From: a virus
Taxonomy: Duplodnaviria > Caudoviricetes
IMG/VR virus record: IMGVR_UViG_3300042260_000337
Strand: one strand, 5' to 3'
Length of the DNA stretch: 64,000 nt
This document shows, piece after piece, positions 4,284-61,230 of this stretch. The translations under genes and the position numbers were made by a program. The notes under the pieces were generated by a model. The model was not told the DNA's origin and made no database searches. It saw only the letters and a list, made by a program, of their open reading frames with translations. The first letter of the stretch is position 1, and every line of letters starts with the position of its first letter.

Positions 4284-7200
4284 TTATAGCTGAACGTATT
4301 CAACTGTAACTGTTGCTGCGCCTGCTGTTGCTGCTGAAACTAGAGAGATTGTCGCACCACCAGCGGTTGCTGTTGCGAATGGTAGTTCTGCAACGTATGT
4401 GCCAACTACATCTTCTTCAATTTCTGCTGCTGTCATTAGAGTATTGGTGCCATCAGAAATTGACACTGTTGCGTCATATGCTGATGTAACTTTTACTGTA
4501 ATGCGTGAAACGTAGTAGGTGTGTCCTGCAACGTTTACGATTGTGCCGATTGCTTCTGATGTTCCAACTGCTTTACGAACTACGAATGAGTTCTTGTCTG
4601 CAACTGCTGCATCTGTGTATGCTTCTGTTGCGTATGCGTTGGTTGTTAGGTAAGCAGCTACACGACCGTCTGTGTAGTATAGGTTGGTTGAACCTTCTGC
4701 TAGTGCATCAGTTGTGTGGTTTGAGATGTCTGAAACTGTTCCAGTTACGTCACCAGTTAGGTTACCAGTTACGTTACCAGTTAGGTTACCGATAAATGCG
4801 CCAGCAACGAATGTATCAGTGCCAACAGTCCAACGATCTGCTGATTCATCCCATAGTAGAGACACGTTTGCGTCTGAACCGCGCTCAACCTCGATACCAG
4901 CATTTTGTGATGCTGCACCAGTTGCGTTTGAGTTTAGAACGATTGTGTTGTCTGCTAGAGCGATAGTCTCAGTGTTTACAGTTGTGGTTGTTCCGTTGAC
5001 AACTAGGTTACCAGTGATAGTAACTGTGTTTGCTGTAATGTCGTCGGAGTTTAGAACACCAGATACAGTAACATCGTTGAATGTTACGTCTGAGGTTGTT
5101 TCAACTGCTTGACCGATAGAAACAACACCAGTTGAAGAAACTGCAACGCCTGTTCCAGCGGTGATTGATAGCGCAGTGTAGTTTGTGCCATCATTTGTTA
5201 CTTCCCACTGATCAGTTGTTTCATTCCACTTGATTTCAACGTCTGCTGATGTGCCACGTTCAACGCGGATGATTGCGTTTTCGGTTGGTGCGCCAGTTAC
5301 GTCTGAGTTTAGAATGATGTTTGCTTCTGCGTTGATATCGCCAGCAACGGTTAGAGAACCATTGACGTTTACGTTATCAATGTTTACCCACTTTGTGCCA
5401 TCCCACGCGATGATTTGGTTTGTAGCCACACTTGTGATTTCAACATCATCTAGACCGTCTAGTGTTAGACCTGTGATGCCTGAAGTTAGGTTTAGAGTTC
5501 CAACAGTAACGGTGTCTGCGGTTACGTTTGCTGCGTAAACATTGTTCCAAGATTTAGCAGCAGTACCTAGATCGTATGTGCCTGTAACGTCTGGAATGAA
5601 GTCTGATGCTACGTCAGCATTGAACTCAACATAGTCTGTATCCGCATCACCTACGATTAGGTTGCCTGATAGTGACATGTTGTTGCCGTTGATGTTTGCT
5701 GAGAATGTTGCATCGCCAGCAACAGTTAGTGAACCACCAACTGATAGGTCGCCTGAAACAGTTGCGTTACCAGTGGTTGATAGGTTACCAGCTAGTGATG
5801 CTGAGTCGCCGTTAACTGTTAGTGAGCCACCAACAACTGCGTCACCATTTTGACGAACTTCAAATAGCTTCTGTGCGTCTGATGATACAACTTCAAATAC
5901 GTTTACAATGTTTGAACCCGCTGCCTTTGTTGCGTCTGATTCTACAGTTACTAGCTGTGATAGAACTGTATTACCAGTTACACTTAGGTCGCCAGTCATT
6001 GTCATGGTGTCGCCTGAGATGTTTGCTAGGAATGTAGCATCGCCAGCAACGTTGATTGTGCCGTCGATTGAAACGTTACCAGTGAAGGTTGAAGTTCCGT
6101 TGCCTGAAACGGTTAGAACGCCACCAACTGATAGGTTTCCGCCAATTACTGCATCACCAACTGTTTCGATTGCTGATAGATCGCCACCTGAAACATATGC
6201 GTCAACACGTGCATCTGTGTAGTATAGGTTTGTGCCTTCTGCTAGGTCAGTAGTTGACTTTGTTGCTAGACGTGTATCGAACATTGATTCGCCACGTGCA
6301 ACTGTCCAGTATAGGTTTGTACCTTCTACAACGTCTGTTGTTGAGAACTCAGTGAAGTCTAGTGCAACTTCGCCGTTGGTTATTGAAACGCCCTTGCCAC
6401 CTGTGAAGTGAGCACGAACTTCTGCTGCTGATGGACCTGTGTAAGTGATTACGCCAGTTGTTGAGTTGTATGATAGAGCACCATCACCACCATTATCAGT
6501 CACAGAGATTGATGCACGAGCACGAGCCTGTGTGAAGAATAGGTTGGTTGTTCCTTCGGTGATTTCATCAGTGTTGTCTTTAGCTTGAACTGATGTATCA
6601 ATGTATGAACGTAGTGTTGAATCTAGTGTTGAGATTTCACCGTCAGTATAGGTGTTTGCATCTGCTAGTGCTTTTGCAATTGAACCCGCTACTTCTGCGC
6701 CACCTTCAATAATGTCTAGACGTGCATCTAGTGCATTGTCTGCTGCTAGACGTGTTGCTGCTTCTGAGTCGATGTTGTCCTGTAGAACGCCATCTGCTGC
6801 AATACGTGCTGATTCTTCTGAGTCGATGTTTGACTGTAGAGTTGCATCGTTGTTGAAACGAGTGGTTGCTTCTGAGTCGATGTTGTCCTGTAGAACGCCA
6901 TCTGCTGCTAGACGTGTTGCTGCTTCTGAATCGATGTTGCCCTGTAGGACACCTTCTGCTGCTAGAGCACGTGCTTCTTCTGCATCAATTGCGTCTTGTA
7001 GATCAGAATCGCCAGCAATACGTGCTAGTTCTTCTACTTTTAGTGCTGCATCTAGCTTGTTGTCGGCATCTTTTAGTGATACTGCTGCTGAGATGTAGTT
7101 TGCAGTGCCATTAGCGGTGTAGCCGCCGTCTGTGCCTAGACCAGCGCCAACCTGAGTTGCGTCTAGTTCTGCTTGAACTGCTGCTGCGTCAGATGATGAC

Positions 7201-7403
7201 TTTGAGTCAACATATGCTTTTGATGCAGCATCGTTAGCATTTAGTGGGGTGGTAGCAACGCGGATGTTGTCTAGTGTTGAACCGTCAGCCTGTGTTACTT
7301 TGAATACTGAGTTACCAGCATCATAAACAACACGGCCACCAGCCTTACCAAACTGAACGTCAGCGGAAATACCTGATAGACCGAAATTCTTAATATTAGC
7401 CAT
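4284..7403 (-). CDS. Long tail-fibre-like virion protein with coiled-coil and beta repeats
   Basis: 1039 aa Ala/Gly/Thr/Asp rich; 18-aa repeats, TDLAEGTNLYYT repeats, GNLT/GNVT repeats. Confidence 0.7.
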   Translation of the reverse strand: MANIKNFGLSGISADVQFGKAGGRVVYDAGNSVFKVTQADGSTLDNIRVATTPLNANDAASKAYVDSKSSSDAAAVQAELDATQVGAGLGTDGGYTANGTANYISAAVSLKDADNKLDAALKVEELARIAGDSDLQDAIDAEEARALAAEGVLQGNIDSEAATRLAADGVLQDNIDSEATTRFNNDATLQSNIDSEESARIAADGVLQDNIDSEAATRLAADNALDARLDIIEGGAEVAGSIAKALADANTYTDGEISTLDSTLRSYIDTSVQAKDNTDEITEGTTNLFFTQARARASISVTDNGGDGALSYNSTTGVITYTGPSAAEVRAHFTGGKGVSITNGEVALDFTEFSTTDVVEGTNLYWTVARGESMFDTRLATKSTTDLAEGTNLYYTDARVDAYVSGGDLSAIETVGDAVIGGNLSVGGVLTVSGNGTSTFTGNVSIDGTINVAGDATFLANISGDTMTMTGDLSVTGNTVLSQLVTVESDATKAAGSNIVNVFEVVSSDAQKLFEVRQNGDAVVGGSLTVNGDSASLAGNLSTTGNATVSGDLSVGGSLTVAGDATFSANINGNNMSLSGNLIVGDADTDYVEFNADVASDFIPDVTGTYDLGTAAKSWNNVYAANVTADTVTVGTLNLTSGITGLTLDGLDDVEITSVATNQIIAWDGTKWVNIDNVNVNGSLTVAGDINAEANIILNSDVTGAPTENAIIRVERGTSADVEIKWNETTDQWEVTNDGTNYTALSITAGTGVAVSSTGVVSIGQAVETTSDVTFNDVTVSGVLNSDDITANTVTITGNLVVNGTTTTVNTETIALADNTIVLNSNATGAASQNAGIEVERGSDANVSLLWDESADRWTVGTDTFVAGAFIGNLTGNVTGNLTGDVTGTVSDISNHTTDALAEGSTNLYYTDGRVAAYLTTNAYATEAYTDAAVADKNSFVVRKAVGTSEAIGTIVNVAGHTYYVSRITVKVTSAYDATVSISDGTNTLMTAAEIEEDVVGTYVAELPFATATAGGATISLVSAATAGAATVTVEYVQL
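6742..6975 (-). repeat. ~4 imperfect 54-nt (18-aa) tandem repeats, EAATRLAADGVLQDNIDS type
   Basis: gcttctgagtcgatgttgtcctgtagaacgccatct recurs with 54-nt period. Confidence 0.8.
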
Positions 7404-7562
7404 TATTATGTCTCCTTAAAAGCTATAATGGATGAAAAAAGGAAATCTGAATACCAGATTTCCCTTTTTTACTCTGGGATAAACTCGTCAGAGTATGTAA
7501 AGATCGTCTCCTCTCCTTACATATGTATTTATTAAACGCTCAAAAAATATAATATTCCGATA

Positions 7563-9560
7563 TTATACATAAGTTACTGTTATTTTTATTTCGCCATTTG
7601 TTGAGCCATTATGTGCCAATGTGGCAATAATGTTTACTTCTTCTTCGCCTTCGTAATGGAAATCTGGAGTCAAGTTATACGAACCAACATTTTCAAGGTC
7701 AATCAGAGCATCACTGACTAGTTCAGAAATATTTCCATCTACACCAATATTTAGCGTAGGAACGTCAGAATAGCCAGTAAATGGGGTAATAACTTCAACC
7801 AACACACTGACAACACGAGAGTGCGGACTAATACGGCCCATTTCAATAACTTCAATGTTGCCTTCAACCTGTGATGGCATTACATAAATATGGTGTAAAC
7901 TATTTGCATCTGTTGCCGCACTATCTTGTGTTGCTACCACAACCCATGCCGAGCCATTCCAAATGTAAAGACCCCATTCACCTTGTCCTGCATCTAATAC
8001 ATATGCTTGGTCGCCAACAAGAACATTATACAATGCATCTCTTGCTACAAGGTCGGCCACGACTGTAATGCCAGCTTTGCGAATACCCTGTTCAATGTCC
8101 ATTCCGATTGGATACGAACCATTATGTCCAGAAACAATACCAAAATCTTCACAAGGAGTTCCAGTAACATTGCTTACAATTATTTCACCACCGTCTGCTC
8201 TTGTTAGAAGTAATGATTTTGCGGTTGATGCATCATAATAAGTTGCTAATCCAGATATAGAACTCGTGCCAGCAAATGGATGGTTATTTGTGTCATTTGT
8301 TAGGTCTACTATAGTGATCGAACCCCCCTGTGTTTCTGTGATATATAGTTTGCCCCCTGATGCTCTTGCTGAAATGTTTGGAATATTTGCTGCAATAATA
8401 TCAGCAACCATGTCTTCTGCAATCGCAACAGTTTGTGAATATTCAGATTGACCAGCCGTTGTGGTAGTAAAGTTAACAGTTACACCATTTATAGATGCAG
8501 AGAATGGAGGGTATCCACCAACCAATCCGTAAATTGCGGATGATATGTCGGACACTGCTTCTGTCAGTGCAGTGGCATTACTTGCAGTTACTTTGTGTTC
8601 TGATGTATATGCATTTATATTATTGACCGCACTTGAAATAGAAGGGCCAGTGAATGTTATTTCTGTTCCATTCAAATTAATTTTATTTCCAGAAGTCGTA
8701 GTAGCATTCAACACTGAACCACGAACTGTGCTTGGAACTGCATTTTTTATATTGAGAAACACCGCCGCCCCAGTAGGGTTTGTAGTAAGGTCACCAGAAC
8801 CATCAATTGATGCATAAACAAAATCACCAGCATTTCCTGGTAATGATGGAGAGAAGTCAATAGTGCCATTCATTGGACGTATCATAAACTTGTTTGGGCC
8901 AGGACCGATATGTGTAATGGTTCCGATTAGTTTGTCAAGATTTGAACTGGACGAAACTTCATAATCACCTTCGTCTGACATGCCGATAACATCACCAACT
9001 TCAAAATTGTGATTTTCTTTTTCAAGAACAAAGTGAGCACGTGGGTTTAGATATTTAAAACGTGAGTTTACGTTTGCATAGAAATCGCTTGAAACAATAC
9101 CAAGTGGCAGTGGGTCAATCATTGGGTCGCCAAATTCATTCAGTTCAAAAATCACTGCTTGACCAGGAACGGTGAATATACCGATACCAGATGCGTTTCT
9201 GAAAGTATTATATCGTAGAACGTCTTCAACCACACAAACCACCGATGTTGATGTTTTTTCTGTGATGCTTATAATTTGTAGTGCTTTGCCATCCGTTGCA
9301 CCAGCAATAAAGTCCCCGACCAATACATCAAATCCATCATATTTGAACGGAGTTCTAGTAAGGTGAGAACCATGTGATATTGGGGTTAGTGTCAAGGTAA
9401 GTTCCCAACGATATGGCTTTGGATTTGCACCGCCGCCCCACCATTTATCACCCATACCATCATCGTATATCCAGTATTCTTTCATTGTCATGTTGGTAAC
9501 AGTTGCGGGCAACACCTTCGCTGGAACGTTCAAATCAATTGCACTTGTTTTCATTGTCAT
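7563..9560 (-). CDS. Virion structural protein (tail/baseplate-associated, inferred)
   Basis: 665 aa, in late cluster, beta-rich composition. Confidence 0.55.
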   Translation of the reverse strand: MTMKTSAIDLNVPAKVLPATVTNMTMKEYWIYDDGMGDKWWGGGANPKPYRWELTLTLTPISHGSHLTRTPFKYDGFDVLVGDFIAGATDGKALQIISITEKTSTSVVCVVEDVLRYNTFRNASGIGIFTVPGQAVIFELNEFGDPMIDPLPLGIVSSDFYANVNSRFKYLNPRAHFVLEKENHNFEVGDVIGMSDEGDYEVSSSSNLDKLIGTITHIGPGPNKFMIRPMNGTIDFSPSLPGNAGDFVYASIDGSGDLTTNPTGAAVFLNIKNAVPSTVRGSVLNATTTSGNKINLNGTEITFTGPSISSAVNNINAYTSEHKVTASNATALTEAVSDISSAIYGLVGGYPPFSASINGVTVNFTTTTAGQSEYSQTVAIAEDMVADIIAANIPNISARASGGKLYITETQGGSITIVDLTNDTNNHPFAGTSSISGLATYYDASTAKSLLLTRADGGEIIVSNVTGTPCEDFGIVSGHNGSYPIGMDIEQGIRKAGITVVADLVARDALYNVLVGDQAYVLDAGQGEWGLYIWNGSAWVVVATQDSAATDANSLHHIYVMPSQVEGNIEVIEMGRISPHSRVVSVLVEVITPFTGYSDVPTLNIGVDGNISELVSDALIDLENVGSYNLTPDFHYEGEEEVNIIATLAHNGSTNGEIKITVTYV

Positions 9561-52373: not shown

Positions 52374-52425
52374 TTCATTTCCTCGTTTGATTATTTTACT
52401 AATATACATGTAAGTGGTTGATTTG

Positions 52426-52614
52426 TCAAGGTTTTTTTTGAAGTTCAGCTATTTTTTCTTTTGCATCCAACACGTTGTGTAATGCGAAATCAAGAAGATA
52501 ATCTCCTTGTAATGGGTTGCCATTGTTGTGTTCCAAATACAAACGTAGATTTGATATGGCAGTCTCCACATAATCTTCTACTGTATTTTTTGTTGCTAAT
52601 GCAAACAGACCCAT
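52426..52614 (-). CDS. Hypothetical protein
   Basis: 62 aa ORF. Confidence 0.5.
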   Translation of the reverse strand: MGLFALATKNTVEDYVETAISNLRLYLEHNNGNPLQGDYLLDFALHNVLDAKEKIAELQKKP

Positions 52615-52714: not shown

Positions 52715-53347
52715 TTAGTATAGACGATTTTCAACGTCAAAAGTGGTGATTGGACCTTTTTTGCCTTTCTCATAAACCCCAACACAAAGTCGGTTTGAGT
52801 AGAATGCTCCACAATCCAAGTTACAACGATTTATCGCAAAAATAGGACCATCGCCATGCGGGGTGTGACCATGGTTCAAATACATAGTCGGATGGTCAAA
52901 TGATGCATACCTACCACGTCTGCGCCAAATCATTGCGTGTTCAAGTTGCTGGCGTTCCTCAAGATGTTCATCCCAGTCGGCATGAACAAATATATTTTCA
53001 TCTTCGATGTGATAGATTTTTAGTTTGTTGATCCAACGCAATACTTCGTCGTCAATAAGTCCACCAAAACTATCCAGAACCTTTGGGTCATATAACTGAT
53101 TAGATGAGCACCAATCATACATCAACATATCTTCATGGTTGCCTTTGAGGCAAATGTATTCCCAACCAGCAGGAGGAACATCCATTAGATAGCGGACAAC
53201 ACCACCACTGTCTGGGCCACGGTCAACATAATCACCAAGGAAAATAATCTTTCCAGAATCTTGGCGTGAGAATATTTCCTTTAGTGCAAGATCAAGTAAA
53301 TCTTTTCTTCCATGTATATCTGGTATTGCGTAATATATTTCACTCAT
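52715..53347 (-). CDS. Metallophosphoesterase (lambda-type Ser/Thr phosphatase family)
   Basis: DIHG, GDYVDRG, GNHE, HGHTP, LDCGA. Confidence 0.9.
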   Translation of the reverse strand: MSEIYYAIPDIHGRKDLLDLALKEIFSRQDSGKIIFLGDYVDRGPDSGGVVRYLMDVPPAGWEYICLKGNHEDMLMYDWCSSNQLYDPKVLDSFGGLIDDEVLRWINKLKIYHIEDENIFVHADWDEHLEERQQLEHAMIWRRRGRYASFDHPTMYLNHGHTPHGDGPIFAINRCNLDCGAFYSNRLCVGVYEKGKKGPITTFDVENRLY

Positions 53348-53366
53348 AATGAATCTTTCTAAATAT

Positions 53367-53523
53367 TGGTCAAGTGGGAAGGACTTGAACCTTCAACTGA
53401 ATCGCAGCTTACACATACTCTTGCAAATGGGTTCGTCTCGAGCCTACTACCATCCACTCAATGTGCCTCACTGAAACTCCACGGCCCCTAATGCCGCTGC
53501 GTCTACCATTTCGCCACCACTCG
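53367..53523 (-). tRNA. tRNA-Leu(UAG)-like RNA with 86-nt variable arm (157 nt)
   Basis: Acceptor CGAGTGG/CCACTTG-A-CCA, Leu-type D-arm, GCGGC-ATTAGGG-GCCGT, T-arm GAAGG-TTCAAGT-CCTTC. Confidence 0.75.
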
Positions 53524-53542
53524 TAAGACGATTTTGAGAAAG

Positions 53543-53704
53543 TCAGCCCTTGTCAAAATCGTCTTGGGATTTATTACCCTTACGCAACTCAACCTTATCA
53601 TCACGGCGTTGCGCTTTTTTGCTCTTACCATGAGCACCGCTCTTTTTCGTAATCAAATGTTGCACGAAGGGATTACGAGCCTTCGGTAGTTTCTTTCGTT
53701 TCAT
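53543..53704 (-). CDS. Small highly basic protein (53 aa, MKRKKLPKARNPFVQHLITKKSGAHGKSKKAQRR...)
   Basis: Read manually; SD GGAG. Confidence 0.55.
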   Translation of the reverse strand: MKRKKLPKARNPFVQHLITKKSGAHGKSKKAQRRDDKVELRKGNKSQDDFDKG

Positions 53705-54206: not shown

Positions 54207-54377
54207 TCAATAGTCTTTTACTATTTTCAGAGAAGTTTCTGCTTGAATAGCATCTGCTTCATCAATCGCTTCTTGTTCGGATAAACCAGAAAGTTCATCC
54301 CAGTTATCAGACCCAACCACCTTCACCGAAAAGGTGTCATCTTCCGAGTCTTGATAGATTGAAATATAAGATTTCAT
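54207..54377 (-). CDS. Small acidic hypothetical protein
   Basis: Start set at MKSYISIY. Confidence 0.45.
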   Translation of the reverse strand: MKSYISIYQDSEDDTFSVKVVGSDNWDELSGLSEQEAIDEADAIQAETSLKIVKDY

Positions 54378-60724: not shown

Positions 60725-60735
60725 ACATTTTAGTG

Positions 60736-60855
60736 TGGTGCGTATGGCTGGACTTGAACCAGCATGTCACCATGACTCATTCAACCACCGTTGAACTTAT
60801 GGATTTGAACCACCTTACGTCCGTCGACGTGCGTCTACCATTTCGCCACATACGC
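60736..60855 (-). ncRNA. tRNA-Leu-type body without anticodon loop, with a second T-loop hairpin (120 nt)
   Basis: GCGTATG/CATACGC-A-CCA, Leu D-arm, ACGTC-GACG-GACGT, GTGG-TTCAAAT-CCAT, TTCAAC/GTTGAA, GCTGG-TTCAAGT-CCAGC. Confidence 0.7.
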
Positions 60856-61130: not shown

Positions 61131-61230
61131 AAGAACACAGTGACCCTAACCGTTCTAACCGCTGAACTACATCGCAGTTTGAAGCCGCAATGGAGGGATT
61201 TGAACCCCCGACCTGTGTAGTATGTGTATA
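61131..61230 (-). ncRNA. Circularly permuted tRNA-like gene (3' half transcribed before 5' half)
   Basis: AGGTC-GGGGG-TTCAAAT-CCCTC-CATTGCG-G-CTTCAAA-C-TGCGATG-TA-GTTC-AGCGGTTA-GAAC. Confidence 0.7.

Follow-up and report, generated by a model that had tools for sequence, protein, structure and literature searches.

On the minus strand of a 64,000-nucleotide stretch of phage DNA (IMG/VR virus record IMGVR_UViG_3300042260_000337; the whole stretch is called the window here), a 157-nucleotide (nt) gene specifies a conserved structured RNA on a tRNA-Leu frame, whose anticodon is dispensable and which shares its genome with a second, normal tRNA-Leu(UAG). We consider it reasonably probable that this RNA is a stable non-coding RNA derived from tRNA-Leu(UAG), in which the tRNA frame carries a structured module of 86 nt in its variable arm. 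Excision by tRNA processing, charging with an amino acid, dimerization, and protein binding would be the steps by which such an RNA works. An earlier note, made from the DNA letters without database searches, had listed a tRNA scaffold displaying a functional RNA domain among its interpretations, and comparative data, namely a conserved frame and arm with covariation, now back that proposal. The window belongs to a 202.7-kb record judged 56% complete, and the source phage is therefore about 350 kb. The parts of the gene are as follows.

53367-53523, minus strand: whole 157-nt tRNA-Leu-framed RNA gene, 5' end at 53523 and 3' CCA at 53369-53367 (from the sequence, the Rfam tRNA model, the ten-sequence alignment, and pair counts)
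53517-53523, minus strand: 5' strand of the acceptor stem, partner 53371-53377; 95.7% of alignment cells paired
53499-53514, minus strand: D-arm of the Leu type, 3-bp stem GCG/CGC and loop AAAUGGUAGA, by likeness to the phage's own tRNA-Leu genes
53481-53497, minus strand: hairpin at the anticodon position, stem GCGGC/GCCGU and 7-nt loop AUUAGGG (loop 53486-53492, UAG 53488-53490)
53395-53480, minus strand: 86-nt variable-arm insert, a four-helix rod with internal loops and a 19-nt apical loop (from folding, the alignment, and RNAalifold)
53461-53466, minus strand: 5' strand of insert helix 3, GCACAU, which pairs with AUGUGU at 53411-53416; 98.3% paired
53417-53422, minus strand: purine-rich internal loop AAGAGU, facing UGA at 53458-53460; conserved in the alignment
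53450-53457, minus strand: 5' strand of insert helix 4, GUGGAUGG, which pairs with CCAUUUGC at 53423-53430; 97.5% paired
53431-53449, minus strand: 19-nt apical loop UAGUAGG-CUCGAG-ACGAAC; 13 of 19 positions invariant
53437-53442, minus strand: self-complementary hexamer CUCGAG inside the apical loop, replaced by UGCGCA in orthologues L221, L227, and L228
53378-53394, minus strand: T-arm GAAGG-UUCAAGU-CCUUC; 98% paired
53367-53377, minus strand: 3' strand of the acceptor stem (53371-53377), A73 (53370), and encoded CCA (53367-53369); A73 and CCA invariant in 10/10 sequences

These coordinates and parts agree with the earlier note, which had described a 157-nt gene of tRNA-Leu anatomy with a four-helix 86-nt hairpin at the variable-arm position. 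The acceptor stem has 7 bp (CGAGUGG/CCACUUG) and is followed by U8 and G9, and the 3' half of the D-loop, UGGUAGACGC, is identical in the target and in the phage's canonical tRNA-Leu(UAG) and tRNA-Leu(CAA) genes. Within the anticodon loop are U33, UAG, and G37, together with an A32/G38 combination that the note had called atypical and that is indeed carried by just 1 of 1,136 distinct phage tRNAs in the collected loci. From base to tip, the arm consists of an outer helix of about 10 bp, a GAG/AA loop, helix 3, a UGA/AAGAGU loop, helix 4, and the 19-nt loop. At 86 nt it exceeds the variable arms of class II tRNAs (about 13 to 21 nt); the tRNA-Leu genes of this phage total only 85 nt each. The Rfam tRNA model (RF00005) scores 36 bits at 53370-53523, where the gathering threshold is 29, and accommodates ~82 nt as a variable-region insertion. 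ARAGORN does not call the gene in default mode, and its intron mode fits the gene only by force, as a tRNA-Ile(UAU) interrupted by 77 nt of intron; on the practical side, such genes thus escape the default mode and are mislabelled (Ile-UAU plus intron) in the other.

No near copy of the RNA was found in GenBank phages and IMG/VR, either via DNA or via the Ser/Thr-phosphatase-like gene that lies downstream, and no similar DNA was found in E. coli genomes. A 16-mer from the anticodon arm had eight matches in IMG/VR, with no tRNA among them. In a collection of 5.8 billion proteins, the phosphatase cluster has 29 members at ≥90% identity, some on contigs of up to 356 kb, and these contigs present the same order each time: a basic open reading frame (ORF), a hairpin, the long RNA, and the phosphatase. 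Phosphatase relatives at 53 to 64% identity have no intergenic space upstream, synteny being lost at that distance. A pattern of 22 nt based on the apical loop led to L210, an 8-kb IMG/VR fragment that has no protein in common with this genome and whose only non-tRNA nucleotide similarity to it is this RNA; the module core is nearly identical there, and the 19-nt apical loop is identical. The resulting set holds ten distinct RNA sequences, the window's own and nine more at 66 to 99% identity to it, from relatives in related ~350-kb phages and from the one unrelated phage fragment, L210. Each loop variant was found again in assemblies of different samples, and the differences are therefore not assembly errors. 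The Rfam tRNA score of the L205 orthologue is 26.7, under the gathering threshold of 29, and L210 has no Rfam tRNA match at E ≤ 0.1. No further members of the module beyond L210 and copies of the same phage lineage were found with nhmmer in 233 sequences (232 loci and the whole genome); degenerate module patterns run against IMG/VR, JGI metagenomes, and GTDB genomes likewise returned only L210 and same-lineage copies. In L210, two GIY-YIG-type homing-endonuclease-like ORFs (6179-6811 and 6935-7579, minus strand; recognized by N-terminal motifs read by eye) flank the tRNA and frame-RNA genes.

Folding energy taken against shuffles (insert, z = -0.88; whole RNA, z = -0.15) is no better than chance; structure beyond chance is established by the orthologue comparison and not by single-sequence energy. 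The 44 pairs of the cloverleaf and the four-helix arm were counted on the ten-sequence alignment, with 3' partners slid by one to three columns and 500 shuffles serving as controls. Standard pairs fill 94.7% of cells, compared to 37 to 47% in the slid controls, and 15 pairs show double-sided changes, compared to 2 to 5. None of the 500 shuffles reaches the observed percentage paired, the number of double-change pairs, or the covariation score. The four cloverleaf helices (acceptor, D, anticodon stem, and T) are 94 to 100% paired, with compensatory changes in each. Double changes affect four of the seven acceptor pairs (G-U to U-G; A-U to G-C; U-A to A-U or G-C), and the anticodon stem, with one double change, is kept in all ten sequences at 94% pairing. 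In the arm, the outer helix is 86.9% paired, with double changes in 4 of 10 pairs, and is a perfect 9-bp helix in L223; helix 3 has double changes at four of six pairs (for example, C-G to U-A in four sequences and A-U to G-C), while helix 4 varies by one-sided changes only and is 97.5% paired. An alternative helix that uses the 3' strand of helix 4 pairs in only 80%. RNAalifold, applied to the arm, recovers the same helices independently and adds a G-C pair within the apical loop. The earlier note had argued that retained pairing implies selection, which does not follow from the single sequence but does hold once the nine further orthologues are compared; the structure of the insert, on whose conservation in relatives it had staked its claim, is conserved in them, with covariation.

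The distribution of constraint is uneven. Invariant across the alignment are A73 and CCA, U48, UGA, AAGAG, and 13 of the 19 apical-loop positions, with UGA present in 10/10 sequences and only the last U of its facing strand varying. Among the nine close relatives, indels fall in the anticodon loop only, apart from one D-loop position. This loop has lengths of 4, 5, 5, 6, 7, or 8 nt, and seven of its eight columns vary. It reads AUUAGGG in the window's lineage, AGAUG in L223, AUGAG in L205 and L226, CGAGAG in L221 (where a parse by hand gives, alternatively, an ACGAGAG loop on a 4-bp stem), AUAGAUGG in L227 and L228, and AGAA in L210. Only the window's lineage has UAG in a 7-nt loop, and elsewhere there is no conserved triplet. 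As compensatory changes maintain frame and arm and the anticodon loop drifts in length, there is no selection for decoding. Carrier and module are thus under selection while the anticodon decays, as the covariation shows. The UUAGG core of the window's loop is that of the loop in the phage's canonical tRNA-Leu(UAG), and the UAG loop of the window is most simply an ancestral state that has not been lost yet. The label tRNA-Leu(UAG), used in the earlier note, stands for the origin of the gene but probably not for a conserved function. A further departure is found in the clade of L221, L227, and L228 (L221:1327-1482, L227:168-326, and L228:17-175), in which G18 is changed to A in the D-loop together with U55 to G in the T-loop. 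G18 and U55 are nearly universal tRNA elbow nucleotides in mutual contact.

We propose that the frame (acceptor stem, Leu-type D-arm, T-arm, U48, and A73-CCA) would let tRNA-processing enzymes release the RNA from a polycistronic transcript and would give it a compact, stable tRNA-like body. RNase P and the 3' processing enzymes recognize the acceptor/T-arm domain. No promoter-like or terminator-like sites were found between the basic 53-amino-acid (aa) ORF upstream, the RNA, and the phosphatase gene, and the RNA must therefore be excised from a longer transcript. The frame would probably also permit charging. In E. coli, Leu identity consists of A73, A15-U48, and the G18G19 elbow, and a tRNA-Leu without its anticodon and variable arms is still charged (PMC9976931). 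The window RNA has A73, U48, and a D-loop half identical to that of the phage's tRNA-Leu, all determinants of the E. coli-type leucyl-tRNA synthetase (LeuRS). As neither the anticodon nor the variable arm matters to LeuRS, the frame probably allows charging with leucine, and the window RNA may be leucylated; for the same reason a leucine tRNA suits the role of carrier and is a natural choice for it. The anticodon hairpin would be a strut, with its stem kept and its loop free in length and sequence. The working part would be the rod-like arm, with its two conserved purine-rich internal loops and the 19-nt apical loop. The self-complementary hexamer of that loop could mediate loop-loop pairing of two molecules or serve to dock a partner. 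The arm is probably a functional docking or dimerizing module, with the tRNA body as its carrier. Whereas phage tRNA genes are usually read as codon-usage helpers, here a tRNA-Leu gene has become the carrier of an RNA module, and the idea of a charged, non-decoding phage RNA is directly testable with the 157-nt molecule.

Two lines of evidence concern the hexamer. First, CUCGAG is replaced by UGCGCA in L221, L227, and L228, with four of six bases changed and self-complementarity kept. Computed loop-loop duplexes have energies of -9.9 and -10.5 kcal/mol for the self pairs and -2.8 kcal/mol for the mixed pair. Because hexamer positions 1-6 and 2-5 cannot pair inside one loop, the switch points to pairing between two molecules, although weakly. 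Second, the DNA site CTCGAG occurs twice in 202.7 kb, compared to 29 expected sites, and one of the two is the apical loop. Palindromes of 6 bp are purged from the record, 25 of 64 being absent as against 41 of 4,032 other hexamers, and eight further ones stand at ≤15% of expectation, which probably represents avoidance of restriction. Retention of CTCGAG against this genome-wide purge is a line of evidence independent of the switch. The dimerization initiation site (DIS) of HIV-1 is a palindromic kissing-loop dimerization site and resembles the target in having a 6-nt self-complementary apical-loop sequence whose natural variants stay self-complementary. Unlike the DIS, the target has a larger loop (19 nt), and its dimerization is predicted only, with one substitution event in support.

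The flanks of the hexamer, UAGUA...GAAC, resemble a bulged-G (S-turn) motif. For the internal loop UGA/AAGAG, tandem sheared G-A pairing in a k-turn-like manner is conceivable. Mimicry of the 23S rRNA sarcin-ricin loop was considered and rejected: the likeness to the E. coli loop is partial (UAGUA, CGAGA, and GA.CC), and GAGA becomes GCAA in one clade. Mimicry of 5S rRNA loop E-helix IV was rejected as well. Here a 9-mer, GAUGGUAGU, is shared, as is AGAGUA, but 48 of 500 shuffles align at least as well, the match also needs the alternative helix (80% compared to 97.5% paired), and the loop-E positions vary.

Several points weigh against the view that the tRNA body carries a selected module. 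The ten sequences represent about six lineages, and the covariation comes from few independent events. Three purine-purine mismatches interrupt the acceptor stem of L210. One event underlies the hexamer switch, and once one side has changed, the odds of its arising by chance are roughly 1 in 16. The LeuRS determinants considered here are those of E. coli and may not be those of the host; moreover, G18 and U55, which belong to the E. coli determinants, are altered in the L221/L227 clade, so that leucine charging may not be conserved. Finally, in the window lineage (the window and L215 to L220) the anticodon arm is formally intact, with a 5-bp stem, a 7-nt loop, U33, UAG, and G37.

This last point bears on the possibility that the RNA is a working phage tRNA-Leu(UAG) that reads CUA/CUN and either tolerates a very long variable arm or uses it as a regulatory handle, which we regard as unlikely. 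U33, the UAG anticodon, G37, A73, and CCA are all intact in the window, and the same loop is kept across six assemblies of its lineage. In E. coli, engineered tRNAs whose variable arm holds a hairpin aptamer remain able to translate, small hairpins being tolerated at this site, but V-Spinach tRNAs, with a larger variable-loop insert, have marginal activity only (PMC7590224); the 86-nt rod, several times the length of any natural variable arm, would therefore probably perform poorly on the ribosome. In orthologues at 74 to 93% identity the loop is 5, 6, or 8 nt long, and in L210 it is 4 nt long, yet all of these still keep frame and arm by compensatory changes. A32/G38 is almost never found in phage tRNAs, and a canonical tRNA-Leu(UAG) is already present in the genome. 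If the RNA of the window's lineage does still read CUA, it would be the first natural case of a decoding tRNA whose variable arm bears a regulatory handle.

Alternatively, as the earlier note had also suggested, the RNA may be a leucine-chargeable decoy: LeuRS would charge it, EF-Tu may bind it, and the arm or, in relatives, the missing anticodon would bar it from the ribosome, so that it titrates or reports on LeuRS, EF-Tu, or the sensing of uncharged tRNA. Such a role would be a special form of the proposal that the tRNA body carries the module and is compatible with it. The conservation of A73, U48, and the D-loop half found in the phage's canonical tRNA-Leu agrees with a decoy, as does the indifference of E. 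coli LeuRS to anticodon and variable arm (PMC9976931); a weak YrlA-like Rfam match in the same gene cluster is also in its favor. However, a pure decoy has no need of a conserved, portable 86-nt module, and G18 and U55 are changed in one clade. We judge a decoy to be unlikely. A more elaborate version, to which we assign a small chance, is a leucine-charged, hexamer-dimerized RNA that would hold a component of host translation via the S-turn-like and tandem G-A loops, a bivalent aminoacylated mimic exchanged among phages.

Splicing and pseudogene decay, in contrast, are incompatible with the tRNA body being a carrier, and both are very improbable. The earlier note had put forward a removable intron at a non-canonical position, and an intron or mobile insertion of 86 nt that is removed to leave a normal tRNA has some precedent, as unexplained inserts occur in tRNA genes of large phages ("enigmatic introns" in Lak megaphages; PMC6784885), and the intron mode of ARAGORN can force a tRNA-Ile(UAU) with a 77-nt intron. 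That proposal does not survive the comparison with relatives. The insert is the best-conserved part of the RNA, better conserved than the anticodon loop of the would-be exons; it is present only once in the genome; and its removal leaves an "anticodon" loop of 4, 5, 6, or 8 nt in four of five lineages, so that in most the tRNA would be unusable. No Rfam intron or ribozyme family matches up to E of 10, the insert is far under group I size, and its position is outside the anticodon loop. The ARAGORN reading of tRNA-Ile(UAU) with a 77-nt intron is ruled out, as its alternative 3' stem strand (GCUGC) is not conserved in relatives. A decaying tRNA pseudogene broken by random insertion would account for the decay of the anticodon loop among relatives and for a folding energy no better than shuffles, but not for 15 pairs with compensatory changes, an invariant A73-CCA and internal loops, a core nearly identical in the unrelated phage L210, or a CTCGAG site retained despite the genome-wide purge.

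Specific intron types and RNA families were rejected individually. A group I intron in tRNA-Leu does not fit an insert that lies in the variable arm, has 86 nt (compared to ~200 nt or more), and lacks an Rfam intron match at E ≤ 10. An archaeal-type bulge-helix-bulge intron, in which two 3-nt bulges enclose a 4-bp helix at the borders of the insert, does not fit either; on inspection, these borders show a plain helix at the base of the arm, where 1 and 4 nt are left unpaired. In the interval 53200-53700, tRNA is the only Rfam match at E ≤ 1, with four other matches at E of 1.6 to 9.6, and among the Rfam tRNA mimics and small ribozymes (YrlA, skipping-rope, hammerhead, twister, and others) no family matches at the target.

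To place the RNA among its relatives in other phages, IMG/VR was scanned with two patterns, each with the Leu D-arm and the T-loop 90 to 120 nt apart and perfect acceptor closure as the filter. At least 61 non-redundant Leu-frame phage RNAs (folded) with unrelated middles of 55 to 120 nt are present in IMG/VR phages, and there are at least 73 candidates with perfect acceptor closure among the collected loci. Among the matches listed, the target alone has an intact anticodon arm (5-bp stem, 7-nt loop) together with an insert that lies entirely within the variable arm. RNAs on a tRNA-Leu frame with long structured inserts thus seem to be a large and widespread class in IMG/VR phages, and we found no published description of phage RNAs with a tRNA-Leu frame and no anticodon. 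A second such RNA lies in the window itself.

60733-60855, minus strand: second tRNA-Leu-frame RNA, with a perfect acceptor stem, A73-CCA, and the target's D-arm

In this second RNA, a 5-bp stem with the tetraloop GACG replaces the anticodon arm and is followed by a T-arm-like hairpin and two more hairpins; a 20-nt D-arm stretch is identical in it and the target. The anticodon-less RNAs share with the target the Leu frame with a long structured insert, their occurrence in tRNA clusters, and inserts that differ between phages. Unlike them, the target keeps its anticodon stem (10/10) and has its insert purely in the variable arm. The window's copy looks intermediate between a tRNA and the anticodon-less forms, and the lineage with the intact loop gives a plausible path from an ordinary tRNA-Leu to the anticodon-less Leu-frame RNAs. 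A different arrangement was seen in two huge-phage contigs from IMG/VR (L019:7827-7982 and L093:8714-8862), where tRNA-Leu genes have ~70 nt inside the anticodon loop, apparently with the anticodon stem and a normal variable arm kept; their inserts share GACGGUGCGAAUCCGGAAUCC and may form a small class distinct from that of the target.

Known RNAs offer partial parallels. The target clearly descends from a bacterial or phage class II tRNA-Leu gene, having the 7-bp acceptor stem, A73-CCA, Leu D-arm, T-arm, and U48 of class II tRNA-Leu (RF00005) and, in the window, the UAG loop. It differs in its variable arm (86 nt compared to ~13 to 20), in an anticodon loop that is not conserved among orthologues, in the atypical A32/G38, and in the lack of the universal G18/U55 in one orthologue clade. 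Lak megaphages have over-long tRNA genes, whose inserts differ little from genome to genome (Devoto et al. 2019; PMC6784885). In contrast to the target's insert, these were taken for introns in the anticodon loop on the basis of a eukaryotic tRNA model, and the structure of the insert, its covariation, and the fate of the anticodon loop, all of which are available for the target, are not addressed in that paper (PMC6784885). Engineered V-Spinach and aptamer tRNAs and the "tRNA scaffold" (PMC7590224) also place a folded module on a tRNA body, which lets the module be processed and stabilized as a tRNA would be, and the variable-arm designs have it in the same place; these are man-made, whereas the target's module is natural, conserved, and much longer than the short hairpins that are tolerated. 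Transfer-messenger RNA (tmRNA; SsrA) likewise has a tRNA-like acceptor and T-arm with CCA and a large structured insert and is charged without an anticodon, but the target lacks G3-U70, a tag reading frame, and pseudoknots, and its D-arm is intact. The target was accordingly rejected as a tmRNA: position 3-70 is A-U or G-C, and ARAGORN finds no tmRNA. The only Rfam tmRNA match at E ≤ 1 in the window (61193-61210; 12 bits, with a gathering threshold of 47) is away from the target.

The target is part of a minus-strand cluster of 17 ARAGORN tRNAs mixed with small ORFs, and the YrlA-like match mentioned above falls in this cluster. The whole record has 40 tRNAs, including the normal 85-nt tRNA-Leu(UAG) and a tRNA-Leu(CAA). 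Locally, the basic 53-aa ORF lies upstream of the RNA and the Ser/Thr-phosphatase-like gene downstream, and a hairpin lies where the ORF gives way to the RNA.

53525-53565, minus strand: 13-bp hairpin around the stop codon (53543-53545) of the upstream 53-aa ORF, ending 1 nt before the 5' end of the RNA

The stem of this hairpin is identical in all relatives, whereas its loop varies and the stop codon is TGA or TAA. The ORF itself (53543-53704, minus strand) encodes a very basic protein of 53 aa, with its stop codon inside the hairpin. An ArfA-like identity, suggested by a likeness to ArfA and its RNase III hairpin, was rejected, as searches of Pfam, NCBIfam, and PDB with the protein returned nothing. 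Elsewhere in the record, ARAGORN reports odd tRNAs at G000:C1:50736-50812, 52384-52480, 54231-54320, and 121642-121718. These tRNAs outside the window include one of 77 nt that is class I-shaped with anticodon UAA, others with anticodons AUA and ACU, and one with the amber-reading anticodon CUA.

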